A DNA stretch of 64,000 nt from Candidatus Woesearchaeota archaeon (GCA_016188045.1 JACPIM010000002.1:17198-81197), one strand, 5' to 3'. Shown: positions 1,324-48,564, counted from the stretch's first letter. The notes: generated from the letters alone by a model not told the origin. Program-made: numbers and translations.

Positions 1324-1650
1324 ATGGATAAGATTATACTTGGATTAACAGAGCAAGTTAAAATAAACGGAATACCAGTTAAAGCTAAAATAGATACAGG
1401 AGCAGATAGAAATTCTATTTGTAAATCTCTAATAAAAGAATTAAATCTGAAACCAACAGGAAAAAAAATAAGAGTAAAATCATCACATGGTATGACCTTA
1501 AGAGAAATTTATAGTGCAGAACTAGAAATAAAAGGCAAAAAAATGATTACTGATTTTAATGTTATTGATAGAAATAATCTAAGTTATTCTGTTTTAATAG
1601 GTAATAATACACTAAAACGCCATAATTTTTTAGTTGATCCAAAAAAATGA
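1324..1650 (+). CDS. retropepsin-like aspartic protease (RimK-associated zinc-protease/ATP-dependent protease family)
   Basis: 108 aa with a KIDTGADRNS motif (the D-T/S-G-A aspartyl protease signature). Its stop overlaps the start of the RimK ATP-grasp gene, matching the known Zn_protease-RimK gene pairing. Confidence 0.6.
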   Translation: MDKIILGLTEQVKINGIPVKAKIDTGADRNSICKSLIKELNLKPTGKKIRVKSSHGMTLREIYSAELEIKGKKMITDFNVIDRNNLSYSVLIGNNTLKRHNFLVDPKK

Positions 1651-2741
1651 AATTTGCTTTAATAAGTTTGGGTGGTAAAAGTAGTCTAAGAGTAGTTGAA
1701 GAAGCAAAAAATTTTTTTGAAGTAGCAGATCACTTGGATTTAAGCGAGATAGAAGTGCGAGCAGATTCAAAAGAATCAAAAGTTATATATAAAGACAAAC
1801 CAATAGGTCCCTATGATTGTATCTATGTTAGGGGTTCTTTTAGATATGCTTTATTACAGCAATCAATAACGCGGGCGTTGCATAACGAGGTTTATATGCC
1901 CCTAAAACCAAATTCATTTACCTTAGGCCATAATAAATTTTTAACCTTATTAGAGTTGCAAAAAAATAAAGTCCCACTACCAACAACATATTTTGTAAAC
2001 AATGTTAACACCGCTAAAAAAATTCTAGAAAAGGTTAATTTTCCAATAATCATGAAAATACCTTCAGGTACACAAGGCAAGGGAGTCATGTTCGCAGATT
2101 CAATGGGTTCTGCAAGATCAATGTTAGATGCTTTGGATGTATTTAACCAACCATATATAATACAAGAATTTATTGACACGGATTCCACAGATATTAGGGC
2201 CATTGTTTTAGGAAAAAAAGTTGTAGCCTCTATGAAAAGAAAGGGAACTAGGGGAGAACTAAGAGCTAACATACATGCTGGCGGAGAAGGAATGAACTTT
2301 GAATTAGGCTACGATATAGAACAGACCGCAATAAAAGCAGCAGAAGCAGTCGGAGCAGAGATAGCAGGAGTAGATATATTAGAGTATGGCAATAAACCAC
2401 TAGTTATAGAAGTAAATCTCTCTCCAGCACTAGAAGGTGGAATAAGTAAAGCTACTAAAAAAAATGTAGCTTATGAAACTGCAAAATTTCTTTTTGAAAA
2501 GACAAAAGAATTCAAAGAAAAAAACAGCAAAAGTCACGCAGAAAGCTTGTTAAGAGAGATTGGATCAACTAATTCAGATAAAAAAGAGTTTCTTACTAAT
2601 CTCAATATAAAAGCGGGCATAATCAAATTGCCAGATATTATAACAGAGATAAGCAAATTACACCCAGATGATGAGGTTTTAATAGAATCAAAAGAAGGAG
2701 AAATAAAAATAAAAAAACAGGAAATTAAAAAAAGCGATTAG
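1647..2741 (+). CDS. RimK-family ATP-grasp ligase (alpha-L-glutamate/LysX-like ligase) with a C-terminal extension
   Basis: ATP-grasp motifs are present (IMKIPSGTQGKGV, IIQEFID, RAIVLG, GVDILEYGNKPLVIEVNLSP). It is translationally coupled to the upstream aspartic protease. Confidence 0.75.
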   Translation: MKFALISLGGKSSLRVVEEAKNFFEVADHLDLSEIEVRADSKESKVIYKDKPIGPYDCIYVRGSFRYALLQQSITRALHNEVYMPLKPNSFTLGHNKFLTLLELQKNKVPLPTTYFVNNVNTAKKILEKVNFPIIMKIPSGTQGKGVMFADSMGSARSMLDALDVFNQPYIIQEFIDTDSTDIRAIVLGKKVVASMKRKGTRGELRANIHAGGEGMNFELGYDIEQTAIKAAEAVGAEIAGVDILEYGNKPLVIEVNLSPALEGGISKATKKNVAYETAKFLFEKTKEFKEKNSKSHAESLLREIGSTNSDKKEFLTNLNIKAGIIKLPDIITEISKLHPDDEVLIESKEGEIKIKKQEIKKSD

Positions 2742-3208
2742 CGATGTAAATCATAAGTTACTTTATCTTTGTTTATAATAGTAAAATATGCCCTCACTTC
2801 TTGTCCAGTTCCAACATCAAAGCCGCTTATATAATATCGCCCACTTTGTATATTTTTGTCTTTTATAATATCAGCTGGTATCTTAAGATAAGGTGTTCCT
2901 TTTTGCGCGTAGCATCTTTTTTGATCGCAGACTTTAAGTCTAACACTATTAACTCGCCCACCTAATTCCCGGTATACCTCTAAATACATTGGAGTAGTAG
3001 GTTTTATAGCAGAATTAGCAATACCCTTACTACCAGGCATTACTGTAACTTTTATTGTACCACCTTCGGTTACACTGTTTTTATCTAAAATAATCTGTGT
3101 TTTAGTATCTGATACCGCACCACCAGTAATACCTTCTCCTAAATTAAAACTAATTAAACTAATAATTAATATTAGAACAGCAAGTAATATCACCTTTTTT
3201 TCATTCAT
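2738..3208 (-). CDS. small membrane-anchored secreted protein, paralog 1 of a tandem family
   Basis: 156 aa. N-terminal basic segment then a hydrophobic helix (MNEKKVILLAVLILIISLISF), a VTVMPGSKG motif and a conserved Cys pair (VCDQKRCY). It shares architecture with the four genes downstream. Confidence 0.5.
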   Translation of the reverse strand: MNEKKVILLAVLILIISLISFNLGEGITGGAVSDTKTQIILDKNSVTEGGTIKVTVMPGSKGIANSAIKPTTPMYLEVYRELGGRVNSVRLKVCDQKRCYAQKGTPYLKIPADIIKDKNIQSGRYYISGFDVGTGQEVRAYFTIINKDKVTYDLHR

Positions 3209-3603
3209 TCACTATCACCTCTCTTTATTGTAAAATCTTCCATTATAAAACCTTTTCGGTTATAGTCATATACCTTAACGTGATAAACTCCCGGTTTCCA
3301 GTTATTTGGTACCCAGTAACTTATAGTGGTTTCTTCAGAGCATTTGTAATCCCCATCGCAAAGTTCAATTGAAGCCTTTCTCAAATCATCTTCCGCGTTA
3401 TAAAAATTAAGATTATTATTTACCCCACCTAAACCAGGATAGACCATTATTAAAATCATACTCCCAGACTTTACAACTTTAGGGCTTATTCTCATCCCAG
3501 AAAACTCTTTTACACTAAGGCCGGTTATGTCTAAGTTAAAAGAAAAAATAGCTATAAGTATTAGGATTATAGCTCCCAATATTATCTTTGACTCTCTTTC
3601 CAT
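3205..3603 (-). CDS. small membrane-anchored secreted protein, paralog 2
   Basis: 132 aa. N-terminal signal-anchor, an IMVYPGLGG motif and a Cys pair (LCDGDYKC). Overlaps its neighbour by 4 nt. Confidence 0.5.
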   Translation of the reverse strand: MERESKIILGAIILILIAIFSFNLDITGLSVKEFSGMRISPKVVKSGSMILIMVYPGLGGVNNNLNFYNAEDDLRKASIELCDGDYKCSEETTISYWVPNNWKPGVYHVKVYDYNRKGFIMEDFTIKRGDSE

Positions 3604-3623
3604 TTATCAAATAAAATAAAAAA

Positions 3624-4058
3624 TTAACCAACATGATTTATGGTAAATATGTTGGAATCAACTTTAAAATTATATGATGGGTTTGACCTTTCTACTCTTA
3701 TAATGTAATCACCAGATTGGACCCTAGCTGGGATCAAAAACTGTTTACTAACTACCCCGTTACATATGCTCTGAGTACCGCATAATGTATCAGAAATACT
3801 TACTCTCTCCTTTAATCCGCTATTAACAGAAAATAGTTCCAATTGGCTATCAACACCAACAGATCCAGTATCAACAGTTACAGTAACGAATTTTGCACTT
3901 TCATCTCCGCTAAAAGTAACTATCGAAGGAGAAACAACAACACTAACATCACTACCATCACCAACAACCCTACCGCTTATTTTATTGAAATTAAAAGCAA
4001 CCAAAGCCAATAAAATTATTAATACTGCAACCAAAAGCGTCTTATTATTCTGCTCCAT
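3624..4058 (-). CDS. small membrane-anchored secreted protein, paralog 3
   Basis: 144 aa. N-terminal signal-anchor and a Cys pair (LCGTQSIC). Beta-rich Ig-like composition. Confidence 0.45.
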   Translation of the reverse strand: MEQNNKTLLVAVLIILLALVAFNFNKISGRVVGDGSDVSVVVSPSIVTFSGDESAKFVTVTVDTGSVGVDSQLELFSVNSGLKERVSISDTLCGTQSICNGVVSKQFLIPARVQSGDYIIRVERSNPSYNFKVDSNIFTINHVG

Positions 4059-4072
4059 ATAATTAACCTCCC

Positions 4073-4528
4073 TTAAATTATATTAAAATTTGCTGTAGCA
4101 TAAACCTTCTGTCTTGTACCACCTAAAGATCTCTCTTCCACATTTTCTTCAACCTTTACTGTATAGGTTGCATCAGAAGGCCAAGTATCATCATTAGTCC
4201 CTACCAAATATTTAACCGTTGATGTGCCATAACAAACTGAAGTTTTTGTAGCTTCCTCTGTACATACTTTTTTATTAGTGCCCTGTATTCTTACGCCATT
4301 TCTCTCTATCGACATCCACTCATTTTTCACACCACCTGGTCCAGGATAAACAGTTACTTCTATAATGCCGTTCCTGTTTACAGGATTAGGCTCAATATCA
4401 ATTACAGTTCCACCGTCTTTTACCTGATATCCAGATAAAGTAGAATTGGTAAAATTACTAGCGATCATAGCCACCAATAATATTCCGACAGCAACAAATA
4501 TGGTTTTTCTTTCATTCATTTTTATCAC
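4073..4528 (-). CDS. small membrane-anchored secreted protein, paralog 4
   Basis: 151 aa. Signal-anchor, a VTVYPGPGG motif and a Cys pair (VCTEEATKTSVCYG). Confidence 0.5.
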   Translation of the reverse strand: MIKMNERKTIFVAVGILLVAMIASNFTNSTLSGYQVKDGGTVIDIEPNPVNRNGIIEVTVYPGPGGVKNEWMSIERNGVRIQGTNKKVCTEEATKTSVCYGTSTVKYLVGTNDDTWPSDATYTVKVEENVEERSLGGTRQKVYATANFNII

Positions 4529-4953
4529 CTTATCCTAAAAGGAGCTTCAATCGTAAAGTCTCCTGTGCATACATCTTTTAATTTAATAACATAATCTTGA
4601 TTACTTTCCCAAACATCACTTTGAGAATATGTTTGTATTTTAGAACTGCCGCTTTTGCATTTATACTCGCCACCACAGATATTCCTCATAGTTACACTTA
4701 TTTTTGAATCAACTGCTTTGCCATTTCTATCCAAGTTTCTTTTGTAAACTCTGGCCTCTTCATAAAAACCTTTACCGCTACCAACATTTACTGTAACCGA
4801 ATCACCAAGGTTTATCTCATTAGGAATAGCAGTAGCAATACTTTCTTTGCAATTAACAATATTACCTGTTAAATTTAGAAAACTAGAGGACAACATTGCA
4901 ACTCCAAGAACTAGAACAGCACTTAATAATATCTTATTCTCTTGTTGCATCAA
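4525..4953 (-). CDS. small membrane-anchored secreted protein, paralog 5
   Basis: 142 aa. Signal-anchor, a VTVNVGSGKG motif and a Cys pair (ICGGEYKC). Overlaps its neighbour by 4 nt. Confidence 0.5.
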   Translation of the reverse strand: MMQQENKILLSAVLVLGVAMLSSSFLNLTGNIVNCKESIATAIPNEINLGDSVTVNVGSGKGFYEEARVYKRNLDRNGKAVDSKISVTMRNICGGEYKCKSGSSKIQTYSQSDVWESNQDYVIKLKDVCTGDFTIEAPFRIR

Positions 4954-5005
4954 TACACCTCCTTTGAATATAAAAGTTATAGTTTCGTTATTTAAAAAAC
5001 TTTCG

Positions 5006-5200
5006 TTAACTTCCGATTAATCTTGAGGGTATATTTAACGCATCAATCTCATATAATGTGAAACCAATTATTAGCAATAGGACAAACAACAGGATAATTA
5101 AGGCAGTAAGTAAATTATTTGTTTTTTGTTGCAACACCTGACTGTAACTAACCTCATATCTCTTTACTTTTCCCTTCTCATCCTTAAGTTCATATTCCAT
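5006..5200 (-). CDS. hypothetical small single-pass membrane protein
   Basis: 64 aa with one strong TM helix. No recognisable domain. Confidence 0.3.
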   Translation of the reverse strand: MEYELKDEKGKVKRYEVSYSQVLQQKTNNLLTALIILLFVLLLIIGFTLYEIDALNIPSRLIGS

Positions 5201-5282
5201 AGTTACTACTTTAAAATGCTTAATATTTATAAAGATATTGATAAAACAAAATATATTTTACGTCAACGCTTTTTTATTTTTA

Positions 5283-5312
5283 TGGTCTTAGCACTTTCTT
5301 AAAGTGCTAATT
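5283..5312. repeat. palindromic motif copy A (ttttatggtcttagcactttcttaaagtgctaat) with a perfect 10-bp stem
   Basis: ttagcacttt / aaagtgctaa is a perfect inverted repeat with a 3-nt loop, immediately 3' of the GT2 gene 5312..6250. A near-identical copy occurs at 42259-42290. Confidence 0.5.
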
Positions 5313-6250
5313 TAAAACAATATTTCCTTAATATTCAAGGTATCTTCTTCATAAGTCTTAAAATAAACTCTAGTTAATATTTCACTAATAAAACCAAACA
5401 TTATTGATAAACTTCCAGTAATAATTAATAAAACAACCAATATCAGTAAAGGACCAACTGTAAATACATTAAGTATAATCGCTTTCATAATCTGCTCTAT
5501 TAAAATAAATAATGCCAAAAAATATTGTATAAATCCTAGACCACCAAAAAAATGCAATGGCCTTGTTGAATAACTTGACCAAAATTTTATGTATAATAAA
5601 TCTAAAAATCCTTTAAATAATCTCAAGCTACCATATTTGGTTTTTCCTAAAATTCTTTTTCTATGATTAACTTTAACTTCTCCAATTTTAAATCCCTTTA
5701 ATAGCAAAATAGTCGTGATATATCTATGCATTTCTCCAAACAAGTCCAAATTTTTTACAACTTCTCTTCTATAAGCTTTCAAAGAACAACCGGCATCATG
5801 TATTTTTTCCTTAACTAAGACTCTTCTAATGAAATTTGCGATTTTTGAATAAACTCTTTTACTAAATTTATCTTTCCTATTCCATCTCCACCCAGAAATT
5901 GCATCATATCCTTTCTTCAATTCATTTAATAATAAAGGTATATCTTTAGGATCATTTTGTAAATCTCCGTCCATGGTTATTGCTATCTTACCACTAAAAT
6001 ACTTAAAACCAGCCCTCCAAGCAGCAGTTTGCCCTAAATTTCTGCTAAATTTTATTACTTTAATTCTTTTATCTTCTTCATGCAATTTTTTTAATATGTT
6101 AAAAGTATTATCTTTACTGCCATCATCAACAAATATAATCTCAAAAGAATTTGTTATTTTTTCTAAAATATTCTTTAACTCCCTATATAAAAGCAATATA
6201 TTCTCCTGTTCATTATACACCGAGACTATAATAGACAAGTCAATTTCCAT
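5312..6250 (-). CDS. GT2 glycosyltransferase, dolichol-phosphate mannose/glucose synthase-like (GtrB/DPM1-like) with C-terminal TM helices
   Basis: IVSVYNEQENI, FVDDGSKDNT and TMDGDLQNDP motifs of GT-A family 2 Dol-P-hexose synthases, plus 2 C-terminal TM helices. Confidence 0.8.
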   Translation of the reverse strand: MEIDLSIIVSVYNEQENILLLYRELKNILEKITNSFEIIFVDDGSKDNTFNILKKLHEEDKRIKVIKFSRNLGQTAAWRAGFKYFSGKIAITMDGDLQNDPKDIPLLLNELKKGYDAISGWRWNRKDKFSKRVYSKIANFIRRVLVKEKIHDAGCSLKAYRREVVKNLDLFGEMHRYITTILLLKGFKIGEVKVNHRKRILGKTKYGSLRLFKGFLDLLYIKFWSSYSTRPLHFFGGLGFIQYFLALFILIEQIMKAIILNVFTVGPLLILVVLLIITGSLSIMFGFISEILTRVYFKTYEEDTLNIKEILF

Positions 6251-8170
6251 TTAAATCAACCTATCCAAGTTTAGCTTTGCTTTATTAATATTTTCATTCT
6301 CAATGAATATTCTATACCATAGCTCAAAATTAAGTATATTCCACATCTGTCTGGCGTAATACAGCTTAGATTTATCCCTAACTTTCAACATCTTTTTAAA
6401 ATATTCTTTTTTAGCTAACTTTTTCCTCACTAAAATAGAATTATCTAAAACCCGATTAGTTAGTTCTTTCAAATCTTTGTTTATCCATTCATCTATAGGA
6501 ACAAAGAATCTTTCTTTTTTAGCACTATAAATCTGCTTAGGTAGTTTATCTTTCATAGTTCTTCTTAACAAATATTTATCTTTTAATCCATTTAATTTTA
6601 AATTGCTCTTAACTTTGGACATTAATTCTACAATTCTATGATCCAAAAAAGGAACCCTTGCTTCAATAGCATGTGCCATAGTCATTTTGTCAACTTTCAT
6701 CAACAAATTATCGCATAAAGAAGCGTTTATCTCACAATCCAAGTTTTTATTCAGTAAACTATTCTTTTTACTAAAATAAAAGTTAAAGTCATTTACTAGG
6801 TCATTATAATACTTACTTAACTTTTCATCTCCAAATTCTTCTAGATCCTTCTTATCAAATACTGTTATTAAGCTCAAATAAGTCAAAGTTTCATTATTCA
6901 AATTTTCCAAGAATACTTTAAATCTCTCAATGCCCTTTTCACCTAAACTCTCGCTATATCTGAAGAGTTTATTTAATAACTGTTTCGGCAGATTATTAAC
7001 TAGATTAGGAACATTTTTTCTTAGTGGCAAAGGAATTATTTTTCCGTATTTCCCCAATTTCATTATTTTATATTGCTCATATCCACCAAAAACTTCATCG
7101 GCTCCCTCCCCTACTAAACAAACAGTTGCTTTTTTCTTTGTTTTTTCAGATAAAACATAAGTTGGAATGGCTGCGGGATCTGCCAAAGGCTCGTCAAAAT
7201 GCCAAATTATTTTAGGCAATAATTCTATTGAGTTTGGTTCAATAATAATTTCATTATGATCGGTATTAAAATAATCAGAAACCAATCTCGCATTTTCTAA
7301 ATCTCTCTCTTTACCAAAACCAACGGAAAAAGTCTTTATAGATTCGTTTTTTAATTTGCTGGCAACTTGGACAATAGTACTGGAATCTATTCCGCCAGAT
7401 AAAAACACACCAATAGGAACATCACTTGTTAACTCGCCCCTAACACCATCAGTTAATAGATTATATAGTTCTTTGCTTAATTTATTTAAATTGCCATTTT
7501 CTTCACTAAAATTAATTTCCCAATATTTATTGATTTCAATTTTTTTACTTTCATATTTTATATAACATCCAGGCTGAAGTTTATTTATATTTTTAATAAT
7601 AGTTCTAGGTCCAGGTATAAATCTTAAAGATAAATAATAACTTAGAGATTGTAAATTAATTTCTTTTTTTATTTCTTCATTTAGTAATAAAGATTTAATT
7701 TCAGAAGCAAAAAACAAAATTCCCTCTTCAAAATAATAATATAATGGTTTAATCCCTAGCCTATCTCTAACAATTAATCCTTTTTTGTTTTTAATGTCCC
7801 ATATACAGAAAGAAAACATCCCAATTAATTTGTTTAAAAACTTTTCACCATGCTCTTCATATAAATGAACCAAAACTTCCGAGTCTGAATTTGAGTAAAA
7901 TTTATGTCCTGCTTTTTCTAATTCTCCTCTTAATTCAATATAATTATATATTTCTCCATTACAAATAACTAAAATAGTTCCATCTTCATTAAATAAAGGT
8001 TGTTTTCCCTTCTTGCTTAGATCAATAATACTTAATCTTCTATGTCCAATACTAACATTTTTATCAATAAAGTAATCATAATCATCAGGTCCCCTATGAG
8101 AAAGTATACTAGTCATTTTTCTAATCAATTCTTTATCTTCTTTTCCTAATATTCCAGTAATTCCGCACAA
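6251..8170 (-). CDS. asnB: asparagine synthetase (glutamine-hydrolysing)
   Basis: N-terminal MCGITG class II amidotransferase Cys2 and an SGGIDSS PP-loop. 639 aa. Start abuts the stop of the upstream GT2. Confidence 0.85.
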   Translation of the reverse strand: MCGITGILGKEDKELIRKMTSILSHRGPDDYDYFIDKNVSIGHRRLSIIDLSKKGKQPLFNEDGTILVICNGEIYNYIELRGELEKAGHKFYSNSDSEVLVHLYEEHGEKFLNKLIGMFSFCIWDIKNKKGLIVRDRLGIKPLYYYFEEGILFFASEIKSLLLNEEIKKEINLQSLSYYLSLRFIPGPRTIIKNINKLQPGCYIKYESKKIEINKYWEINFSEENGNLNKLSKELYNLLTDGVRGELTSDVPIGVFLSGGIDSSTIVQVASKLKNESIKTFSVGFGKERDLENARLVSDYFNTDHNEIIIEPNSIELLPKIIWHFDEPLADPAAIPTYVLSEKTKKKATVCLVGEGADEVFGGYEQYKIMKLGKYGKIIPLPLRKNVPNLVNNLPKQLLNKLFRYSESLGEKGIERFKVFLENLNNETLTYLSLITVFDKKDLEEFGDEKLSKYYNDLVNDFNFYFSKKNSLLNKNLDCEINASLCDNLLMKVDKMTMAHAIEARVPFLDHRIVELMSKVKSNLKLNGLKDKYLLRRTMKDKLPKQIYSAKKERFFVPIDEWINKDLKELTNRVLDNSILVRKKLAKKEYFKKMLKVRDKSKLYYARQMWNILNFELWYRIFIENENINKAKLNLDRLI

Positions 8171-8182
8171 AGTTTAAACCCC

Positions 8183-8923
8183 CTATACTTTCTGTGCTAT
8201 AATAACCGTTTCAACACCAAAAGGATACTTAATGAATTTCATTAATATAATCTCTAGCTTAGCAATTAGTAAAAAAAAGCTATTTAAAAATTTAGGTCCA
8301 GTTCCAATTGAAACTTTCTTACTTTCTTTATAGGTCAGTCTCTGATAATATGTGAAAAAAATATCTGGTAAGAACGCAAAAAAATTGCAGTAATTTTCAT
8401 ATATTATTTTTAAACTGTTTTTTTCTAAAAGTTTCTTAATTAAATTTTTAGTATATCTTCTTTTATGATGTGAACTATAATCAATATCACCCCATAAAAA
8501 ACCAAACACCGGAACAACAATGAATAAGTATCCATTTTTATCCAATAAACCAAATAGATTTCTAACAGCGTTATCGTCATTTTCAGTATGTTCTAATATA
8601 TCAGAAGCCAAAATAAAATCAAATTTTCCTCTAGGCAAAGTTTCTTTTTTCTCAATATCTGCCTTATAGCATTCAATGCCCTTTTCTTTGCAGATCTTCA
8701 CGGCTTCTTCCATGAAATCAATCCCAACCACTTTATTTTTCTCACTTAATTCTTTTAATAAAAATGAATTCTGTCCAACATTGCAGCCAACATCTAATGG
8801 ATTTTCAAATCCAATTTTCAGTCTTTTAATCAATTTTTTAATTAAAATCATTCTAGAAACATTATACCAATTATATGAACTCCTTTCATTTAATAGTTTA
8901 TAATTATCTATATCCATAGCCAC
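8183..8923 (-). CDS. class I SAM-dependent methyltransferase
   Basis: Motif I LDVGCNVGQN and post-I/II FILASDILEHT. Confidence 0.7.
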   Translation of the reverse strand: MAMDIDNYKLLNERSSYNWYNVSRMILIKKLIKRLKIGFENPLDVGCNVGQNSFLLKELSEKNKVVGIDFMEEAVKICKEKGIECYKADIEKKETLPRGKFDFILASDILEHTENDDNAVRNLFGLLDKNGYLFIVVPVFGFLWGDIDYSSHHKRRYTKNLIKKLLEKNSLKIIYENYCNFFAFLPDIFFTYYQRLTYKESKKVSIGTGPKFLNSFFLLIAKLEIILMKFIKYPFGVETVIIAQKV

Positions 8924-8987
8924 TTATTTACCTTAAAAAACCTTTTAAACCTTCTTAAACAGTATTTTACTCATTTTCACTAATAAA

Positions 8988-10361
8988 ATGAAAAACAAAG
9001 ATATAATTCTGATTATTACTGGATTTTCCTTAGTTATTATAATATTAAATTTATTAATAAAAAACGTGCTTTACACAGACGTAGGAGACTATTTGGCTGT
9101 GGCAAAATACTTCTCAAATAATATAGTTTCTAGGATAAGAAGCACACATTCATGGGTATATGGTTTATTTTTATCTCAATTTTTAAAAATTTGGTCTTCT
9201 GTTTTTTTAGTTAAACTAGTAAACAGTTCTTTCTTAGTTTTTACTGCAGTATTATTATATAATCTTACGAAAGATAAAAAAGTGCTATTTTTGTGGATAT
9301 TATCCCCAGTAGTCTGGTATATGACACCACAAATAAGCCCAATCTTGCCTTCTGCTTTCTTATTATTGCTTTCTTACAAATTCATTAAAGAATATGAATC
9401 AAAAGAAAAATTAAAATACTTAATTTACTCAGCCTTGCCATTAGGCTTATCTTCTATATTATGGGACTCAATGATTCCAATTTCAATTTTCTTTATCTTG
9501 GTTTTTTTCTTTAACAGAAGATTAAAAGAAATCTTGTTTTTTGGTGTTTTTTATTTCATTGCCTTTTCAATAAGATTCATCCTAGACTATTATCTATTTA
9601 GTTATCCATTTTTTTCTTTATTTAGGTTCTTCGGAGGTTCTTTATTAGTTTATTTAAGACAAGGAAATTATACCCACATTTCAAATCCAGTTTTAAATTA
9701 TATATTATACTTAGTAATAATCTCACCATTTTTATTTAAAATTTACAAATTAAATTTTAAAGAATATAAAAAAGAATTAATTTTCTTGTTATTAACAGTT
9801 TTAATGTTCATCTCATCAAGCAATCAACTAAGGTATTTTCTGATTTTAGCACCAATTTCAATTTTATTAATTTCAAAAGTAATGACAAAAAAAGAATTAG
9901 TTCTAAATTCAATACTCTCGGTTTTATTAATACTGTTCCTACTTTATCCAAGTTTTGTAGATAACTCAGAAAAATTAATTCAGGAAGATTTAAATCAGAT
10001 TGCAAAAGATTTTCCGAATGAAGTTTTTTTTGCAGGCAATGAACAAGAAGGTGACGCTTACCTAGTCTACTCTTTAGTCTATTGGGGAAAAGAAATAAAA
10101 GAAATAATTAGCTGGCAAGACTTGCAACTGGTATTAAGTAATAAAACTAACTTCCAGCAATATAGGTATGAGAGTAAGGCTAAAGTGGGCGAAACAAGAA
10201 ATGTATGGCTCGAATTTGGTGTCTCTAGGGCAGATAATAGGACTTATGAATATGTTGATTATTTAATATCATCTAAAAAAGAAACCTCATTAAAAAATTT
10301 TAAGCTTGTTAAATCATATAAAACTTTAAATGTTTTTAAAAAGGATACTACTAAGAAATAG
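8988..10361 (+). CDS. polytopic membrane protein, possible GT-C-type glycosyltransferase
   Basis: 457 aa with about 10 TM helices followed by a soluble C-terminal domain. Sits in the glycosylation context. No diagnostic motif was recognised. Confidence 0.4.
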   Translation: MKNKDIILIITGFSLVIIILNLLIKNVLYTDVGDYLAVAKYFSNNIVSRIRSTHSWVYGLFLSQFLKIWSSVFLVKLVNSSFLVFTAVLLYNLTKDKKVLFLWILSPVVWYMTPQISPILPSAFLLLLSYKFIKEYESKEKLKYLIYSALPLGLSSILWDSMIPISIFFILVFFFNRRLKEILFFGVFYFIAFSIRFILDYYLFSYPFFSLFRFFGGSLLVYLRQGNYTHISNPVLNYILYLVIISPFLFKIYKLNFKEYKKELIFLLLTVLMFISSSNQLRYFLILAPISILLISKVMTKKELVLNSILSVLLILFLLYPSFVDNSEKLIQEDLNQIAKDFPNEVFFAGNEQEGDAYLVYSLVYWGKEIKEIISWQDLQLVLSNKTNFQQYRYESKAKVGETRNVWLEFGVSRADNRTYEYVDYLISSKKETSLKNFKLVKSYKTLNVFKKDTTKK

Positions 10362-10404: not shown

Positions 10405-10701
10405 ATGAATAGAACTAATTATATTGGTAATCTTGTTAGTAAGGTAGCATTAGGGGCTACATTATTATTTAGTGCGCCAAATGTTGGTGCTAATGGGGGC
10501 ATTGCTTTAGATCAAGGATCATCGACTATTAGTAGGGAAGAAATTTATTCCAAATTGCATGGTATAGAAAATAGACTACAAAGAATAGAAGAACAACAAA
10601 ATAGCATTGAAAATAGGCTTACTGGCCAAAGTATTAGTATCGGACTTGCATTTTCTGCTATTGGGTATTTGATCTTTAGATCATTTAAAAAAACTAAATA
10701 G
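10405..10701 (+). CDS. small secreted coiled-coil protein with C-terminal membrane anchor
   Basis: 98 aa with an N-terminal signal-like hydrophobic stretch, a heptad-like segment (LQRIEEQQNSIENRL) and a C-terminal TM plus KKTK. Confidence 0.35.
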   Translation: MNRTNYIGNLVSKVALGATLLFSAPNVGANGGIALDQGSSTISREEIYSKLHGIENRLQRIEEQQNSIENRLTGQSISIGLAFSAIGYLIFRSFKKTK

Positions 10702-11989
10702 GTTTTTCAAAACCCCACTTATCTAAAGCTCTTCTTAATTCTTTATGTGTTTTAGCATATTTATCTAAACTTATCCCTTGTTTATATGCTTCAATTGATT
10801 GAATAACCGCTCTAGCTCCAGCTTCAATTCCATCAGGATGACCTTGCGTTCCTCCTCCAACTTGTAGTACAATATCCGTAGTACCATATATATCAAAAAC
10901 CAAAGGCAAAATTCCAGGATGCAGTCCGCCAGAGGAAACAGACAAAACCGGCTTAATTCTTCCCCATTTTTGCCTTAATCTTAAATTTTCAATTTCATTA
11001 ACTTCATTTTTCATCAACATTTCCTTCATAGCAATAATCTCTTTTTCATTTCCTTCTAATTTTCCAATAACCGTTCCTGTATGTATTTGATCTACTCCAA
11101 TTAACCTTAATAGTTTAGATAAAAATAGCATACTCATCCCATGTTTTGGATTTTTTGTAAACATGGCCTGCATTGCCCGGTGTCCATGAATAGCCATTTT
11201 ATAATCATGAGCAAGCTCACAAGCAGTTCCGACAGCAGTAAAACCAGAAACAACAACATCCAACATGAAATACTTAAAATCATGATTATGAATTATCTTT
11301 ATCCTTCTCTCAAGTTCTTTTAAGTTTGGAGAAGTTACATTAATAAAAGCATCTTTCACATTACCAGTTTCTTTTTCAGCTTTATCTCTAAACTTTGAAA
11401 GAAGTTTAACTCTCTCTTCAAATCTATTAAATTTTTGATTTGTTAAATTCTCATCATCTTTAACACAGTCTATCCCGCCTTTCCAAACGGCATAAGCTAC
11501 TTTTTCTGCATGTTCTCTAGCAGTATATCCTAGTTTTGGTTTAGGAACAACAGAAGTAATGGGTCCATTTTTTCTTTTGAATATTTTTTTAATAGCCTCT
11601 CTTCCATAAACAGCACCTTTAAAATATTTAATATAATCTAAAGGCAATTCAGCATCTACTAATCTTAAATTCTTAACAGCTTTCATCCCAAAAATATTTC
11701 CACCAATTCCCGACATTAATCCAGGAACAGATCCATCTTCAACTATGATCCTAGGATAAGCAACTTTCACATATTCTTTATCACAATTAAAAGCATAAGC
11801 CTTCACTTTATTTAACAACTTAGGTTTTTGTTTTAGTGTAGTCCATGTTCCAGAAGAACTTTCAGATGCAACCCTTGCAATTGCTTCTTTCATAGAAATT
11901 CCTTTAGCAGGTTCAACTCTAAACAAACAAACTATATCATTTTTCTTAGGTTTATATTTAAAGTTAACAAAATCAAGATATTGGCTCAT
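10694..11989 (-). CDS. rbcL: ribulose-1,5-bisphosphate carboxylase/oxygenase, form III large subunit
   Basis: Near-collinear match to archaeal form III RbcL: GTWTT, GNIFGMK, VPKPKLGY, GGIDCVKDDENLT (carbamylated Lys), AIHGHRAM, SSGGLHPG, VGGGTQGHPDG. Confidence 0.93.
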   Translation of the reverse strand: MSQYLDFVNFKYKPKKNDIVCLFRVEPAKGISMKEAIARVASESSSGTWTTLKQKPKLLNKVKAYAFNCDKEYVKVAYPRIIVEDGSVPGLMSGIGGNIFGMKAVKNLRLVDAELPLDYIKYFKGAVYGREAIKKIFKRKNGPITSVVPKPKLGYTAREHAEKVAYAVWKGGIDCVKDDENLTNQKFNRFEERVKLLSKFRDKAEKETGNVKDAFINVTSPNLKELERRIKIIHNHDFKYFMLDVVVSGFTAVGTACELAHDYKMAIHGHRAMQAMFTKNPKHGMSMLFLSKLLRLIGVDQIHTGTVIGKLEGNEKEIIAMKEMLMKNEVNEIENLRLRQKWGRIKPVLSVSSGGLHPGILPLVFDIYGTTDIVLQVGGGTQGHPDGIEAGARAVIQSIEAYKQGISLDKYAKTHKELRRALDKWGFEKPI

Positions 11990-12733
11990 TTAATCCCCTT
12001 TAAAAAATATTTTTTTAAAAAAGTTGATTATTCTTCTCATAAAAGACTCTCGCTCTTTTAAAAAATTATCAACATCTTTTTCAATACCAGTTTTATTATC
12101 AACTTTGTTATTATTTTCATTTACTTTATCAACAGTAACATTAGAAACACATCCGTCTATTTTAGTATTAAAACAATCAAAATTTTTACACTCATCTTTA
12201 GTGCATTCATTTCCATCATCACAATCTTCATTTTTCTCACAAATCTTTCCACCAATATGTTTGCATTCTTTTGGAGATCCTGTACAAATATCTACTGTAC
12301 TAGAATCATTATCACTACATTCAATATCACTATTACATTTATTAATTGGTTTTTCTCTGCATCTATTATCATTGCATTCTAATCCGTTTTTACAACCGCA
12401 ATCATTGCAACAATTATCAGATGTTTCAGTTTCATCACAATTCCCATCCCCACAACTGTAAAGTGATTCAGCACTTATATCGGCTTGACTAAGAACATCA
12501 GAAAAAAATATTTCTCCAACAGTAATCTTAATGCCGTTTATATTCTTAGTCTCTTTTTCTTTTATAATACCAGAAACATCATCAACACTAACTACTACAG
12601 AATCTTCAGATACTCCTTTAAGTGTTATTTTTTTCCCACTAACTTCAATAGTGCTTCCTTTTTCTAACTGATCCGCTAAGGTAACATTAACTAAAATCAT
12701 CAATGCAAAAAGCAAGATTACTAATTTTTTCAT
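11990..12733 (-). CDS. secreted cysteine-rich protein (Asp/Asn/Cys-rich repeats), unknown function
   Basis: A cleavable-looking signal peptide (MKKLVILLFALMILVNVTLA), then a ~110-aa segment with about 24 Cys in D/N-rich repeats (CGDGNCDE, CNDNRC, CDDGNECTKDEC). Its ATG overlaps the stop of the HAD gene and its stop abuts the rbcL start. Confidence 0.5.
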   Translation of the reverse strand: MKKLVILLFALMILVNVTLADQLEKGSTIEVSGKKITLKGVSEDSVVVSVDDVSGIIKEKETKNINGIKITVGEIFFSDVLSQADISAESLYSCGDGNCDETETSDNCCNDCGCKNGLECNDNRCREKPINKCNSDIECSDNDSSTVDICTGSPKECKHIGGKICEKNEDCDDGNECTKDECKNFDCFNTKIDGCVSNVTVDKVNENNNKVDNKTGIEKDVDNFLKERESFMRRIINFFKKIFFKGD

Positions 12734-13365
12734 AATATTCTCTTTAATTCATTTAAATTTTTAACAATATAATCAGGTTTATATCTTTTTAATTCTTTTT
12801 CTTTGTAATATCCCGTAGTCACAGCTATTATCTTTACTTTTGCTTTTTTTCCTGCCGTAATATCATAAATAGAGTCGCCAACAACAAAATCAGGTTTTTT
12901 CTTAAAAAACTTCCCAACTTTCAAGATTTCATCAGGATAAGGCTTGGATCTTTTAACATCATTGTTCCCAATTAATAAATCAAAATATCTCTTACTAATG
13001 CCCGCTCCATTTAAAAGAACATATATATTGTTTCTGGAACAGTTAGAAGTAATAGCAATCTTATACTTTTTTTTCTTTAAATATTTTAAAATCTCTAAAG
13101 AAGATTTAAGTTTTTTAGCATATTTAAAATAACCGCCAGCCAAATATCTATCATGTAATTTTTTTATTTCATCTTTAACTTTTTTGCTTGATTTGGGAGC
13201 TAATAGTTTAATAAGTTCCTCTTTTGGTCTACCCAATTTACCGAACATATATTTTTCAGTTTTACTTTCTAACCCAAAAGAGTTTAATGCTCTGTTATAT
13301 GCTTTAGTATGTGCTTTTACAGAATCAACTAAAGTATTATCAAGATCAAAACAAACTATTTTCAT
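12730..13365 (-). CDS. HAD-superfamily hydrolase subfamily IA (phosphoglycolate-phosphatase-like)
   Basis: Motif I FDLDNTLVDS (DxDxT), motif II ITSN and motif IV VGDSIYDITAG. Translationally coupled between the R15P isomerase and the Cys-rich protein / rbcL. Confidence 0.7.
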   Translation of the reverse strand: MKIVCFDLDNTLVDSVKAHTKAYNRALNSFGLESKTEKYMFGKLGRPKEELIKLLAPKSSKKVKDEIKKLHDRYLAGGYFKYAKKLKSSLEILKYLKKKKYKIAITSNCSRNNIYVLLNGAGISKRYFDLLIGNNDVKRSKPYPDEILKVGKFFKKKPDFVVGDSIYDITAGKKAKVKIIAVTTGYYKEKELKRYKPDYIVKNLNELKRIL

Positions 13366-14201
13366 TTATATTCCTCTTTCGCTTTATTCATTAATTGTTT
13401 TGGAGTTAAAATCCCTAATTCAGTAATAATTGCTTTTACATGTTTCGGTTCAATAATATCAAATGCTAGATTCCTAACTTTTATTTTTTTAGGTATTTTT
13501 TCCCAAATTTCCTTTAAGTCTCTTTCTTCAATTTTTAATTTTTTAGGACTATATTTCCAGCTATTGCCTAGAATATAGACCGGAATTTTATTATCATAAG
13601 CAATCTCGGCAAACATGCTGCTCCCAACTTTATTTACAATTCCAGTAATCTTCCATTTGTTATTGGTTATTATTGCATCCATTCCAAGAAAAACACAATC
13701 TGATTTCTTGATAAAAGATTTAGCCGCAGAATCAACAAACGTAGTAACTTTTATTCCCGCTCTTGAAAGTTCTTCAGCAGTCTTTCTTCCTTGATATCTT
13801 GGCCTGGTTTCACTAACAAAAACCTCAAATTTTTTACTATGGTTTTTAGCATATTTCAAAGTATCCACCACAGTAGAAGAATGACAATGAGTAAAAACTT
13901 TTTTTCCAACTTTTTTATGTGCTAGTTTTATTATTTTTTTCTTGCTTTCTTTAATGTAATCTAAAGTTTTTTTAATCCCATTTTTCTCAGCAAATTTTAT
14001 TGCGTTATACAGCATCGGTTCTGTTGGTCTTAAGTTTAATAATTCTTTAACAGAAATATCTTTTAAAGAAAGAGCTTTAACACCATAAATAGCGATGCTT
14101 TCCGCTCCTTGTATTTCTAAACTTTTTATTTTTCTATAAACCTCTTTTGCTCCCATGTGATTTACTAAGTTTTCATCTTTATATAAATCTTTTTTATTCA
14201 A
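13362..14201 (-). CDS. ribose-1,5-bisphosphate isomerase (eIF-2B alpha/beta/delta-like, e2b2 family)
   Basis: Strong collinear similarity to archaeal R15P isomerase: THCHSS, VSETRPRYQGRKTAEEL, FVDSAA, AFDIIEPKHVKAIITELG. Sits in an operon with rbcL. Confidence 0.82.
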   Translation of the reverse strand: MNKKDLYKDENLVNHMGAKEVYRKIKSLEIQGAESIAIYGVKALSLKDISVKELLNLRPTEPMLYNAIKFAEKNGIKKTLDYIKESKKKIIKLAHKKVGKKVFTHCHSSTVVDTLKYAKNHSKKFEVFVSETRPRYQGRKTAEELSRAGIKVTTFVDSAAKSFIKKSDCVFLGMDAIITNNKWKITGIVNKVGSSMFAEIAYDNKIPVYILGNSWKYSPKKLKIEERDLKEIWEKIPKKIKVRNLAFDIIEPKHVKAIITELGILTPKQLMNKAKEEYK

Positions 14202-44045: not shown

Positions 44046-44240
44046 CCCTGAATAGTAAAATGATGTTTCCAACAATAAAAACACCAGCTAAGATAAGCCA
44101 GGTAAGATTATCTGTGACCACAGTTATAAACATAAACAAGATTGCTAAAATACTAAGTCCTGTTTTTATAATATCATTAGCTATTGTCATTTTTTAATCA
44201 CCATATAACTTTAAATATTAAAGATTTGCCTTATTTAAAG

Positions 44241-46955
44241 ATGATGGGGACAACATCTAAGGAAAAGGCTAAAGAAGAACTTAAAAAACTTATTGAAGAC
44301 TTTAAGATTAATTATCAAGACTACAAGAAGTTAGCAGAAGCAGATATAGAAACAAAGCTAGTTGAAGAATTATTTATTAAAGTATTAGGGTGGACTAAAA
44401 ATGACTTTTTTAAACAAACAAAGACAAGAAGAGAAAGTAAAGGTGGAAGAGCTGATTACGAGTTTAGAATTAATGATAGAATAGTCTTTTTTTTAGAAGT
44501 TAAAAAAGTAGATGTTAATTTAGATAAAGAGGCTAATAAACAAGTAATATCTTATGCTCTTTCAAGAAGAATCCCTTTTGCGATTTCTACCAATTTTAGA
44601 CAATTAAATATTTTCTGTGTTGAACAAGAAAACGCAGTTAATAATGTATTTAGAACTTTTAAAAGTCCAGATGATTACCTCAACAGTTTTGAGGATTTGA
44701 TGTTTCTATCTAAAAAATATTTTGAAAATGGTTTAACCCTAAAAAAAGCAGAAGATGAAAGAAGATTAAAAAAGAGGATAACTATTGACAAAACCTTACT
44801 GAATGATTTTATGCATATAAGAAGCTTGATAGCTAATGATATAGAAAAAAATTATTATGGAACATATGGTATTAATGATAAAGACGAGATAGTACAAAGA
44901 ATTTTAGATAGATTAATTTTTATTAGAAAATGTGAAGATACGGGGATTAATCCAGAAAATATCGTCTTAAGAGAAGTACAATCATTACCACATAACAAAG
45001 CATATCCCAAATTAAAGGAAATTTTTAAGAAATATAATGATATTTACAATAGTGGGCTTTTCGCTATTACGAGAGATAATGATTGTGATACTATAGACGT
45101 TAATGGATTAATAATAAAAGAATTAATTGATTATTTATACGAATCCAAAGATAAACAATATGTCTATAATTTTGATTGGATTGATGCCGATATTTTAGGA
45201 CAAGTTTATGAGCAGTATTTAGGAAAGATATTGGCTCAAACAAAATCAGGTAAGGCTAAACTTAAGGATGGACAATATCATAGAAAAGAACAAGGAATAT
45301 ATTATACTCCAACTTATGTGGTAGATTATATTGTTAAGAGTACGTTAGGGGAATTATTAAAGGATAAAAAAATTGAAGTTAAGAAGTTAAAAATATTAGA
45401 CCCCGCCTCTGGTTCTGGGAGTTTCTTGATTAAAGCATTTGATTACCTAAATGAAGATATATCCAAAACAGATGAATCTAAACAAAGAAAATTCGATAGT
45501 CAGGGGCTTTATTCTATTAAAACAGAAATTTTAAAGAATAACTTATATGGTGTAGATTTGGATAACAAAGCTGTGGAAATAACTAAATTAAACTTACTCC
45601 TTAAGGCTTCTGAAAAGGATAGAAAATTACCTGAAGAACTTGATAGACATATAAAACATGGAAACAGTCTAGTTGATGATGAAAATATTGATAAAAATGC
45701 ATTTAATTGGGAGGATGATTTTAAAGAAGGTAGTTTTGATGTAGTTATAGGTAATCCGCCTTATGTTTTTACAAGAGATGTTGAATTTCAGGATTTATTC
45801 AAAAATTATGTAGCAAAACATTACTTAAATGCTTCAGAATCAATTTCAAAAAGCCATGCGAGACAATCAGGGAAAGTTAATCTATATGCTTTATTTTTAA
45901 TTAAAGGAATTAGGTTGCTTAAAAATCACGGCTTATTTGGATTTATTATACCAAATAATATCTTGAGAACTACTACTTATGACATAATAAGAAAATTTAT
46001 CTTAGATAATTGTAAAATTCTAAAAATCGTTGATTTGGGAGTGGGTGTTTTTGAAGGCGTTACTGCTTCAACTATAATCTTAATCCTAGAAAAAGAGAAT
46101 GAAAAAACAAAAAGGGACAAAAATAAAGCTAGTATTTATTCAGATGTTAACAATTCATCAGATAAAAAGGAAGTTGAACAAAAAGAATTTTTAGGTAATA
46201 CTAGCTATGCCTTTAATATAACTTTGGGAAAAGAAGATAGAACCCTTTTTGATAAAATAGAAAAAAACACGATTCCTTTAGGTGGAATAACCACTATCCA
46301 TGCAGGAGGGATAGCGACAGGAAAAAATAAAAAAGAGATGATAGAAAACTATCCTAAAAATTCTAAATATAAAAAGATGTTAGAAGGCAAAGACATAAAC
46401 CCCTACTATCCTCAATTCTCAAATAGGTATATTTTATATGAAAAGAAACTGTTGTATAGGGCAAGAGAAGAATCTATATTCCTAAACCCAGAGAAATTGG
46501 TTACGCAAAGAATAGGCGGGGGGAATAAGGTTTTGGTTGTAAGCTATGATAACCAACAATTCTATACTTTCAATTCTACAAACACCATTCTTCCTAAGGA
46601 CAAAAATTATCCTTTGAAATATCTTGTTGCAGTATTAAACTCAAAGTTAATAAATTGGTATTATGTAAATAAATTTACTAATAAATCTGAATTAACAGTT
46701 AATATATCAAAAACATTCTTAGAACAACTTCCCATAAAAGATACTTCTGAATCCCGAAAACGAGTAATTATAGAAATGGTAGATAAAATTATAAGTTATA
46801 ACAAAGACTTGGCAAGATTGGGTGATAAAACTACATCTGAAACTAAAGAACTGAATGATAAGATAGAAAAGTTAGATAAAGAAATTAATAAAACTGTTTA
46901 TGATTTATATGGGATTACTGAAAAAGAAAAGGAAATAATTGAAAAACTGGAATAG
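44241..46955 (+). CDS. Type IIG/IIL restriction-modification enzyme (MmeI-like: N-terminal endonuclease + N6-adenine methyltransferase + TRD in one chain)
   Basis: About 905 aa. LDPASGSGSFLI (motif I), VVIGNPPYVFTRD (NPPY motif IV, N6-A MTase) and an N-terminal PD-(D/E)xK-like ADYEF..FLEVKK. Size and order match MmeI. Start taken at ATG 44241 rather than the table TTG at 44184. Confidence 0.75.
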   Translation: MMGTTSKEKAKEELKKLIEDFKINYQDYKKLAEADIETKLVEELFIKVLGWTKNDFFKQTKTRRESKGGRADYEFRINDRIVFFLEVKKVDVNLDKEANKQVISYALSRRIPFAISTNFRQLNIFCVEQENAVNNVFRTFKSPDDYLNSFEDLMFLSKKYFENGLTLKKAEDERRLKKRITIDKTLLNDFMHIRSLIANDIEKNYYGTYGINDKDEIVQRILDRLIFIRKCEDTGINPENIVLREVQSLPHNKAYPKLKEIFKKYNDIYNSGLFAITRDNDCDTIDVNGLIIKELIDYLYESKDKQYVYNFDWIDADILGQVYEQYLGKILAQTKSGKAKLKDGQYHRKEQGIYYTPTYVVDYIVKSTLGELLKDKKIEVKKLKILDPASGSGSFLIKAFDYLNEDISKTDESKQRKFDSQGLYSIKTEILKNNLYGVDLDNKAVEITKLNLLLKASEKDRKLPEELDRHIKHGNSLVDDENIDKNAFNWEDDFKEGSFDVVIGNPPYVFTRDVEFQDLFKNYVAKHYLNASESISKSHARQSGKVNLYALFLIKGIRLLKNHGLFGFIIPNNILRTTTYDIIRKFILDNCKILKIVDLGVGVFEGVTASTIILILEKENEKTKRDKNKASIYSDVNNSSDKKEVEQKEFLGNTSYAFNITLGKEDRTLFDKIEKNTIPLGGITTIHAGGIATGKNKKEMIENYPKNSKYKKMLEGKDINPYYPQFSNRYILYEKKLLYRAREESIFLNPEKLVTQRIGGGNKVLVVSYDNQQFYTFNSTNTILPKDKNYPLKYLVAVLNSKLINWYYVNKFTNKSELTVNISKTFLEQLPIKDTSESRKRVIIEMVDKIISYNKDLARLGDKTTSETKELNDKIEKLDKEINKTVYDLYGITEKEKEIIEKLE

Positions 46956-47072
46956 GGTAAAATAATATCACTTTTAAAGAATAATAAAAATTTATAAAGT
47001 TCCAAAATTATATAATTTTACTATGGAGTGTTGGAAGTGGTGAACCCAACATATGAAATGATAAAAGATAGG

Positions 47073-47194
47073 AGGGGCGATTTCTAAACTTGCCGTTTAA
47101 GGAAATCCCCTTCTTTATCACCATTTTTAAGTGTAAAATTAACTTTTTATAGTTCTTAGTTGTTGTATTATTAACCTTAGACGGCAATTTAAGG
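47073..47194. other. structured GC-richer spacer: extended hairpin (47073-47112) plus a 13-nt inverted repeat (ttgccgtttaagg at 47090 / ccttagacggcaa at 47175)
   Basis: ggggcgatttc..gaaatcccc stem enclosing a taaac/gttta inner stem. A second arm, ccttagacggcaa, is the reverse complement (12/13) of ttgccgtttaagg 85 nt away. Confidence 0.35.
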
Positions 47195-47283
47195 TAATGT
47201 ATTAATGCTGAAGAATTAACTGCTATTGATTACATAAATATATTCATAGTATGCCTAATTCTGAAGTATTAGCATAGCTATTA

Positions 47284-48354: not shown

Positions 48355-48564
48355 TTTGAACTGTTGGATATTCCTCTCTCCAAATTTTTTTATTTTTTTC
48401 TGTTCTATGTGGTTACATTCTAAAGGTTTATCTCCTATTTTCCAATTTTTACAACAAGAACACATATGGTTACTATTCCATTCTAAAATGAAATCTAAAA
48501 TTTCCCTTTCTAATTGGTCTTGTTTAAATCTCCATACTGCCTCTAAGTGAATAAAAGAAGTCAT
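48304..48564 (-). CDS. questionable small Cys/His-rich ORF (HNH-like C-x2-C ... C-x-H spacing)
   Basis: 86 aa with HMCSCCKNWKIGDKPLECNH. It overlaps the 3' end of 47284..48354 convergently by 51 nt, so it may be shorter or spurious. Confidence 0.2.
   Translation of the reverse strand: MTSFIHLEAVWRFKQDQLEREILDFILEWNSNHMCSCCKNWKIGDKPLECNHIEQKKIKKFGERNIQQFKSILFLRSLSLKKQLHC

Follow-up and report, generated by a model that had tools for sequence, protein, structure and literature searches.

A 64,000-nucleotide (nt) stretch of DNA from Candidatus Woesearchaeota (GCA_016188045.1, JACPIM010000002.1:17198-81197), which we refer to as the window, carries a run of small minus-strand genes for membrane proteins, which we call p1 to p6. 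The source is a metagenome-assembled genome, in which p1-p5 are HYV88_00135-00155 on a 233.5-kb contig. In the order of transcription, the genes are p6 (5006..5200; 64 amino acids (aa)), p5 (4525..4950; 141 aa), p4 (4073..4519; 148 aa), p3 (3624..4058; 144 aa), p2 (3205..3603; 132 aa), and p1 (2738..3208; 156 aa, with a C-terminal extension). A preliminary description of this DNA had reported an array of five consecutive minus-strand open reading frames (ORFs) of 132-156 aa. The ORF listing bears out the positions of p1-p5, and all five genes are real, but the array is incomplete: a sixth co-oriented gene, p6, encodes a bitopic membrane protein and belongs to the unit. Together, p6-p5-p4-p3-p2-p1 (2738..5200, minus strand) is a six-gene operon that is conserved in Woesearchaeota and 'Nanoarchaeota' (DPANN archaea).

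The signs of an operon are Shine-Dalgarno sites, a stop codon that lies within the next gene's Shine-Dalgarno site, and one 4-nt overlap between genes. The Shine-Dalgarno sequence of p5 (GGAGGTG, 4956..4962, minus strand) ends 5 nt (TATTG) upstream of the ATG at 4950; the ORF also opens at a TTG at 4953 (142 aa), and NCBI and other gene calls give 141 aa. The Shine-Dalgarno sequence of p4 (AGGTGA, 4525..4530, minus strand) includes TGA, the stop codon of p5, suggesting that the translation of p5 and p4 is coupled. It also contains a GTG at 4528 from which the longest p4 ORF begins (4073..4528; 151 aa). We consider this start to be spurious: the product from the ATG at 4519 begins with MNERK, as it does in independent gene calls and in all orthologs. 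Two 4-nt overlaps had been described; the overlap of the p1 start with the p2 stop is real, but the overlap of p4 with p5 rests on the GTG. Shine-Dalgarno-like sequences precede p3 (GGGAGGT) and p1 (GAGGTGA), and none was seen in the sequence upstream of the p2 start.

A TATA-box-like element, TTTATAAATA (5224..5233, minus strand), lies 24-33 nt upstream of the ATG of p6. Given the known spacing of archaeal promoters, this is likely to be the promoter of the operon, and the mRNA would be leaderless or have a very short leader. An inverted repeat, AGCACTTT-AAG-AAAGTGCT (5290..5308, minus strand), comes right after the stop codon of the upstream GT2 gene and is followed by A/T-rich sequence. Judging from the sequence, this is probably the end of the upstream transcription unit. 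At the other end of the operon, the 3' end of p1 and the 3' end of a convergent RimK gene overlap by 4 nt (2738..2741), which leaves no space for a terminator.

As had been proposed, p1-p5 are paralogs with a single architecture. Their pairwise identities over the whole length are 22-35%, with BLASTP E-values down to 7.6e-14, and all five match a hidden Markov model (HMM) of the family with E-values of 1e-29 to 1e-46. None of the five matches a Pfam or NCBIfam model. The common plan is a short N-terminus, one conserved hydrophobic helix that ends in FNF..[IL][TS]G, and a beta-domain. Residues that are invariant in all five include K5, A10, G29 (of the TG motif), V32, V56, G59, two cysteines, and a tyrosine, as well as a phenylalanine and an isoleucine in the last strand. 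The motif V-T-V-x-P-G-x-G-G, which had been ascribed to all five, is complete only in p2 and p4; p1 has part of it, and in p3 and p5 it is degenerate. The glycine at its "PG" position is invariant in the five, and in an alignment of 32 sequences, this glycine, the valine, and the second glycine are each at least 90% conserved. The archetypal type of domain is that of p2 (VYPGxGG ... C-x5-C ... WxPGxY).

The spacing of 4-9 residues that had been reported for the cysteine pair is correct: 4, 5, 5, 9, and 5 residues separate the two cysteines in p1 through p5, respectively, and the pair is invariant. Besides the longest of these loops, p4 has an insertion ahead of the last strand. All orthologs of p5 have a second conserved pair of cysteines, C34 (in NC) and C129 (in VCT; 141-aa numbering), which could form an extra disulfide between the linker and the last strand.

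An AlphaFold2 model of p2, built with the 32-sequence family alignment, has a predicted local distance difference test (pLDDT) score of 88.4. It comprises a helix (residues 2-26), a low-confidence linker (27-31), and seven beta strands (pLDDT >90), in agreement with the earlier proposal of a beta-rich domain after a single helix. The outer domain of p1-p5 is thus confidently predicted to be a seven-strand, immunoglobulin (Ig)/macroglobulin-like beta-sandwich with a Cys-x4-9-Cys loop. The best Foldseek matches of the p2 model are to the macroglobulin (MG) domains of human alpha-2-macroglobulin (E = 1.1e-5, target-normalized TM-score of 0.72), and the MG domains of C3, C4, and C5 are also matched. 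Although MG domains and GEVED/PPC modules are the best structural matches for the ectodomain, identities are just 12-17%. Also, those modules are beads in large proteins, whereas the array proteins are single domains, each on its own membrane helix. None of p1-p5 matches PF01835, PF07703, PF20009, or PF04151 at the gathering score.

A word-indexed search identified 31 relatives of p1-p5, all unnamed and all from Woesearchaeota or 'Nanoarchaeota', and a scan of contigs with the family profile yielded 5 loci. An exhaustive profile search found 423 representatives (clustered at 50% identity), of which 195 had E-values of 1e-10 or below; most representatives are 120-170 aa. About 20 relatives instead contain 2-7 tandem copies of the beta-domain behind an ordinary AxA signal peptide, which ends 6-9 residues before the same first strand. 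These multi-repeat proteins also carry subtilase, C25 peptidase, dockerin, PEGA, discoidin, or S-layer domains. Because homologous repeats sit behind Sec signal peptides in multi-domain surface proteins, the beta-domain is extracellular, as had been suggested; the invariance of the cysteine pair also speaks for this location. The multi-repeat relatives have weak matches to GEVED, MG2, A2M_BRD, and PPC; across 106 members of the family, PPC matches weakly in 5. In one multi-repeat relative, P0032, GEVED scores 39.7 bits, where the summed scores of the repeats reach the cut-off and no single stretch does. We also asked if the repeats map to separate paralogs (a Rosetta-stone test). They do not: repeats within one protein are 25-97% identical, and all are closest to the p2 type and represent internal duplications. 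There is therefore no fusion evidence for a complex of p1-p5.

Because of the low identities among the paralogs, the array had been described as rapidly diverged and under diversifying selection. Indeed, tandem surface adhesins, used for instance in host recognition by a DPANN symbiont, might have paralogs that are only 22-35% identical, ectodomains that evolve faster than their leaders, a copy number that varies between lineages (3-5 here), and one member, p1, that evolves faster than its neighbors. But each paralog has its own ortholog group, and the order p5-p4-p3-p2-p1 is maintained in at least 6 assemblies. In comparisons of the window to three orthologous arrays, dN/dS (the Nei-Gojobori ratio of nonsynonymous to synonymous divergence) is 0.10-0.40. 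The identities of p2-p5 to their orthologs in the array at locus L001 (69-79%) are like those of the neighboring RimK, aspartyl protease, AI-2E, GT2, AsnB, and methyltransferase genes (74-83%). The one clear exception is p1, which evolves faster (48% identity to L001, dN/dS = 0.40). The operon also lies in a conserved neighborhood of core genes rather than in a variable island. Rapid divergence or diversifying selection is thus unsupported at the level of genes; at the whole-gene level, the idea of diversifying adhesins is largely refuted, and we think it very improbable. The paralogs are old, and each is conserved under purifying selection.

More distant lineages have arrays of 3-4 genes: a p5-type gene, then a p3-type gene (1-3 copies), then a p2-type gene. 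The p5 type is always the first after p6, and the p3 type is found in all arrays. The p4 type is seen mainly in the window's clade, and p4 and p1 look like additions in that clade.

The most conserved gene of the neighborhood is p6. It is 94% identical to its ortholog at L001, at a distance where synonymous sites are saturated (proportion of synonymous differences, pS, of 0.75). Across the other arrays, identities are 61-95% (for instance, 82% for L005 and 61-63% for L012 and L013, where the paralogs are far more diverged than p6 is). A metagenome scan seeded with p6 found 24 loci; wherever downstream sequence exists, 1-5 genes of the p1-p5 family follow directly, up to the end of the contig, and where the contig reaches far enough, there are 3-5 of them. 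L042 has the same arrangement of p6 and then family genes. The pairing of p6 and the array is the only constant one; the other neighbors vary.

The p6 family comprises 91 clusters, all unnamed and all of 60-84 aa. We considered whether p6 might be a known small subunit, and rejected this because there is no sequence match in Pfam, NCBIfam, or PDB. The protein has an N-terminal motif, one transmembrane helix, and a short conserved C-terminal tail (IDxLNIPxRLI). The invariant residues of the N-terminal segment, which is presumably cytoplasmic, are G10, K13, Y15, E16, S18, S20, Q21, L23, and Q24. In an AlphaFold2 model, residues 19-63 form a long helix, with pLDDT >90 in the transmembrane part, and the N-terminus is of low confidence, which would suit a motif that is folded only when bound to a partner. 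Loci L033-L036 encode distant p6-like proteins (88-93 aa). These match the N-terminal motif and the transmembrane helix only (E from 1e-6 to 1e-9), and no family gene was found after them on their short contigs. At L012, a 222-aa protein with the post-helix motif …NLTGYTV is encoded between a HAD gene and p6 (8147..8815). It is the only non-family ORF with a family-like post-helix motif, and it could be an additional, divergent part of the module there.

The N-terminal leader of p1-p5 is unusual. Its consensus across the family is MEKNNKILLLAVLIILVALVSFNFNGITGKAV, and its geometry is nearly fixed: the n-region is 6 residues long in 100 of 156 members, 106 of the 156 have an uncharged run of exactly 16 residues, and the glycine of the [ST]G is at position 28-30 in 118 of 153. 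The N-termini had been described as basic, but they are not net basic. The pattern is M-[EQN]-x-x-x-K, with about as many acidic as basic residues and one near-invariant K/R beside the helix, and the acidic residues are conserved. Among orthologs, the leader is more conserved than the ectodomain (identity of 0.79 versus 0.65, dN/dS of 0.14 versus 0.28). The difference is very large in p3, whose leader MEQNNKTLLVAVLIILLALVAFNFNKISGR is near-invariant (0.95 versus 0.66, with a dN/dS of 0.02 for the leader), and it is also pronounced in p5 (87% versus 65%). The same residue is kept at nearly all positions of the helix, and the residues at K+5, K+12, and K+15 are small. We looked for a conserved face of the helix, and there is no clean 100-degree periodicity since almost every position is conserved. 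An N-glycosylation sequon is not the general explanation for the [ST] of the TG motif either, as an asparagine is at the needed position in only 31 of 153 members.

The leader is also specific to the family. The motif [ILFVM][TS]G is present in 68 of 68 family members. Of 46 other ORFs whose products are exported or have an N-terminal anchor, just 1 has it, and this ORF adjoins a p6 gene. Within the window, an HMM of the leader matches p1-p5 only. A profile of the 41-aa leader had no match at E ≤ 1 among 5.8 billion sequences, a result that is uninformative as to whether the leader serves as a modular sorting signal on other domains. In Gram-positive bacteria, the YSIRK-type and KxYKxGKxW-type signal peptides have conserved motifs that mark one class of surface proteins, and they are cleaved. 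The leader of the array proteins resembles them in being an N-terminal export sequence of unusually conserved sequence and geometry. It differs in that its conservation runs through the whole helix; those signals are bacterial and cleaved, whereas the array leader may not be cut.

Could the leader be a specialized Sec signal peptide that is cut by signal peptidase I after [IL]-[TS]-G? Soluble sandwiches of ~100 residues would then be released into the pseudoperiplasm, the S-layer, or the medium, and p6 would either have a dedicated role in targeting or assembly or be unrelated. With its ~29 residues, the leader has a cleavage-compatible, tripartite layout (n = 6, h = 16, c = 6-7), with [ILFVM] at -3 and glycine at -1, and polar asparagines before the site could break the helix. 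Cleavage would also fit with the multi-repeat homologs, which are clearly secreted via cleaved AxA signal peptides, and with the low-confidence break in the p2 model, which is exactly at T27-V31. However, signal peptides normally evolve faster than mature domains, while this leader is more constrained than the ectodomain, to an extreme degree in p3 and p5, and its conservation extends to individual residues. An ordinary signal peptide would have no need of the conserved acidic residues in the n-region. Also, the true signal peptides of secreted proteins from the same genomes have shorter h-regions, end in VxA, and lack the TG motif; by this comparison, the leaders are more like signal-anchors, as had been proposed. 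Cleavage is the main rival to a membrane-retained helix, and we consider it unlikely.

If the leader were removed, the ~10-residue segment between it and the first strand could act as a donor strand. p1-p5 would then be fiber subunits that assemble by donor-strand exchange, as in the "threads" or bundling pili of archaea or in bacterial chaperone-usher pili, where the segment after the TG would complete the next subunit. Having several Ig-like paralogs in one operon is consistent with this. But the predicted fold is already a complete seven-strand sandwich with no apparent open groove, no usher, chaperone, or cap-like genes are nearby, and the conservation of the leader argues against the cleavage that this mechanism needs. 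We view donor-strand exchange as extremely unlikely.

Another possibility is that p1-p5 are non-canonical type IV pilin-like subunits (one major and several minor) of a filament or pseudopilus, with unusual or no N-terminal processing and with the type IV filament machinery encoded elsewhere. Like archaeal type IV pilins (PF07790; PDB 8fk7, 8gi2, 9myg), these proteins have a helix followed by a beta-sandwich, and the helix is the most conserved part. Five small paralogs in a fixed order with translational coupling also resemble sets of minor pilins. A weak profile likeness runs from the helix through the first strand: Pilin_N is the most common sub-threshold Pfam match in the family (12 of 106 members, best E = 0.005), and among non-significant sequence matches to PDB, haloarchaeal pilins and an archaellin are on top. 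A Pyrobaculum pilin is also the seventh-ranked Foldseek match for p2.

However, the scores for Pilin_N are all below the gathering threshold (~14 bits in three members that were scanned singly, versus 25.2 bits for PF07790). The alignments span profile positions 10 to 59 or 77 and never include positions 1-9, where the cleavage site lies, and p1-p5 themselves have no match to Pilin_N at E ≤ 10. Similarly, the Pyrobaculum pilin matches with a root-mean-square deviation of 12 A, and, in contrast to the packed arrangement of pilins, the linker between the helix and the domain is predicted to be flexible. The class III (prepilin) site, of the form [KR][GAS], is absent from all five paralogs, as had been noted, and among 157 family members, just 3 have a FlaFind-like pattern. 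Right before the helix, 128 of 156 members have K/R, but the next residue, which must be G/A/S in a class III site, is I/V/T in 135 of 156.

One distant member of the family, P0110, does have a link to a filament system. At locus L038, its gene comes last in an operon that also encodes a T2SSE ATPase, two T2SSF platform proteins, and two canonical pilin-like proteins. The arrangement agrees with that of the DPANN "system 1/4A" loci, which have two platform genes (bioRxiv 10.64898/2026.04.22.720090). But the pilin-like proteins of that operon carry class III sites (KRG and KKA), and the adjoining P0110 does not. (The ATPase gene at L038, 169..4254, is interrupted by two inteins, one of which has a LAGLIDADG endonuclease domain.) Searches by tblastn with the ATPase and platform proteins from L038 gave no match in either the 64-kb window or the other loci that we examined, and no machinery genes adjoin the arrays. 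Filament genes are likewise missing from the five other contexts in which we find the family: a pair with a PEBP gene, single genes near AglB and glycosylation genes, near Gat, or between TruD and an FtsY-like gene, and the p6 arrays. The earlier suggestion of adhesin or pilin subunits could still be right, but it is not the best reading, and we think that pilus subunits are quite unlikely.

Two of these contexts deserve comment. Lineages without p6 (L003 and L039) have a pair of family genes, one of the p2 type and one of the p3 type, behind a PEBP-family gene, and near these pairs are genes for membrane-anchored proteins of the thioredoxin, glutaredoxin, or AhpC type, which may bear on the formation of extracellular disulfides. 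At L043 (9001..10654), a lone family member is co-oriented with, and 32 nt upstream of, an FtsY-like gene of the SRP54 family (the signal recognition particle (SRP) receptor).

The closest known parallel is with ArlF and ArlG (FlaF and FlaG) of the archaellum. FlaF is monotopic, with an N-terminal helix that lacks a class III site and an Ig-like beta-sandwich (PMC4425475). Like p1-p5 as predicted here, ArlF/ArlG combine a monotopic, pilin- or archaellin-like N-terminal helix that is FlaFind-negative with an Ig-like sandwich, which lies in the pseudoperiplasm (PMC4425475). They are also paralogous partners that are encoded side by side, and they act as oligomers (PMC4425475); at the level of the genes, the array likewise consists of neighboring paralogs. 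The differences are that the operon in the window lies outside of any archaellum operon, with no ArlH/I/J-type genes in the window, and that the array has five paralogs and a p6 partner. The fold has seven strands instead of eight, with the addition of the invariant Cys-x4-9-Cys loop. No archaellin-type Pfam or NCBIfam model matches p1-p5 or appears among the 25 most common weak matches of 106 members, and the structures of FlaF and FlaG are not in the top 50 Foldseek matches to p2. Given the operon context and the sequence criteria, we do not claim that p1-p5 belong to the ArlF/ArlG family.

We propose that p1-p5 follow a similar logic. The Sec pathway would insert p1-p5 into the membrane with the N-terminus in and the C-terminus out, and the N-terminal helix would be kept as an anchor; as with ArlF/ArlG, pilin-like helices without a prepilin cleavage site would remain in the membrane. 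Each protein would hold one small, disulfide-stapled Ig/macroglobulin-like sandwich near the external membrane surface. The five anchors, given their residue-level conservation, would pack together and with the helix of p6 into a heteromeric envelope complex of fixed composition, and the ectodomains would make a pseudoperiplasmic or cell-surface scaffold, perhaps with a role in anchoring or adhesion. We hold this proposal tentatively, with slightly less than even confidence.

Several observations weigh against it. Because some family genes are found singly or in pairs at loci that lack p6, not every member can require it. The leaders of p2 and p4 are not more conserved than their ectodomains. 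The uncharged run of 16 residues (18 with FNF) is short for an anchor, and the conserved [IL]-[TS]-G meets the -3/-1 rule for signal peptidase I. Finally, the transmembrane helix of p6 has a weak similarity to the leader of p1-p5, which may be compositional.

A more specific conjecture, which we consider possible but rather doubtful, is that p6 and its 3-5 paralogs form an unrecognized envelope apparatus of Woesearchaeota that operates with no type IV filament ATPase. Pilin-derived helices that can no longer be processed would bundle around the helix of p6, the N-terminal motif of p6 would link the bundle to a conserved cytoplasmic partner, and a ring or stack of Ig-like domains would hold the S-layer or contact a host.

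The neighbors of the operon encode RimK, an aspartyl protease, an AI-2E transporter, a GT2 glycosyltransferase, AsnB, a methyltransferase, RuBisCO, and a HAD protein. We considered the glycosylation genes as functional partners. In the window, a block with GT2, asparagine synthase, and methyltransferase genes and a gene for a 457-aa polytopic membrane protein (5312..10361) is inserted between the HAD and RuBisCO genes and p6. This block may be a lineage-specific cassette for glycan modification; it is specific to the window's clade, and other lineages have just HAD-p6-array, so we rejected these genes as partners. Where the HAD hydrolase precedes p6, SecDF and SpoIIM are further upstream.

On the plus strand (1324..2741), a RimK-type ATP-grasp ligase and a small retropepsin-like aspartyl protease, whose genes overlap each other by 4 nt, are convergent to the array. 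The same pair is downstream of the arrays at L001, L005, L009, L011, L014, and L018, and it is absent from L019 and L042. Given this absence and the opposite strand, we take the association to be synteny only.

Genes for the salvage of AMP and nucleosides flank the operon: a form III RuBisCO (10694..11989), the HAD hydrolase (12730..13365), and an IF-2B-family protein (13362..14201) that is likely to be ribose-1,5-bisphosphate isomerase. An AMP/thymidine phosphorylase-type gene lies just upstream of position 1 of the window, as seen at L007. Farther away, a 923-aa restriction-modification enzyme (MmeI-like, type IIL) is encoded close to an IS240-family DDE transposase (48983..50185). The gene call for this enzyme at L008 has matches to N6_Mtase, MmeI_Mtase, Eco57I, and TaqI_C. 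The region as a whole (44184..50185) looks like a mobile or defense patch within otherwise core surroundings.

This analysis defines two protein families that have no model in Pfam or NCBIfam: the beta-domain family (423 representatives) and the p6 family (91 clusters). The leader, with its fixed geometry, is a possible search key for related proteins. The array should not be counted among cases of diversifying selection.

DPANN archaea, Woesearchaeota included, have yet to be cultivated. Their genomes are very small, and they are believed to rely on other cells. To our knowledge, almost nothing has been established about the structures of their envelopes or about those that contact other cells. 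The operon is a promising candidate for a core surface structure, since it is conserved across the lineage, is under purifying selection, and encodes only envelope proteins. It would offer a second, independent case, like ArlF/ArlG, of pilin-like helices that have lost prepilin processing and would be retained in the membrane. If the conjecture of an apparatus that needs no filament ATPase is correct, then p6 and the paralogs would be a new kind of archaeal surface complex, free-standing and evolutionarily parallel to ArlF/ArlG.

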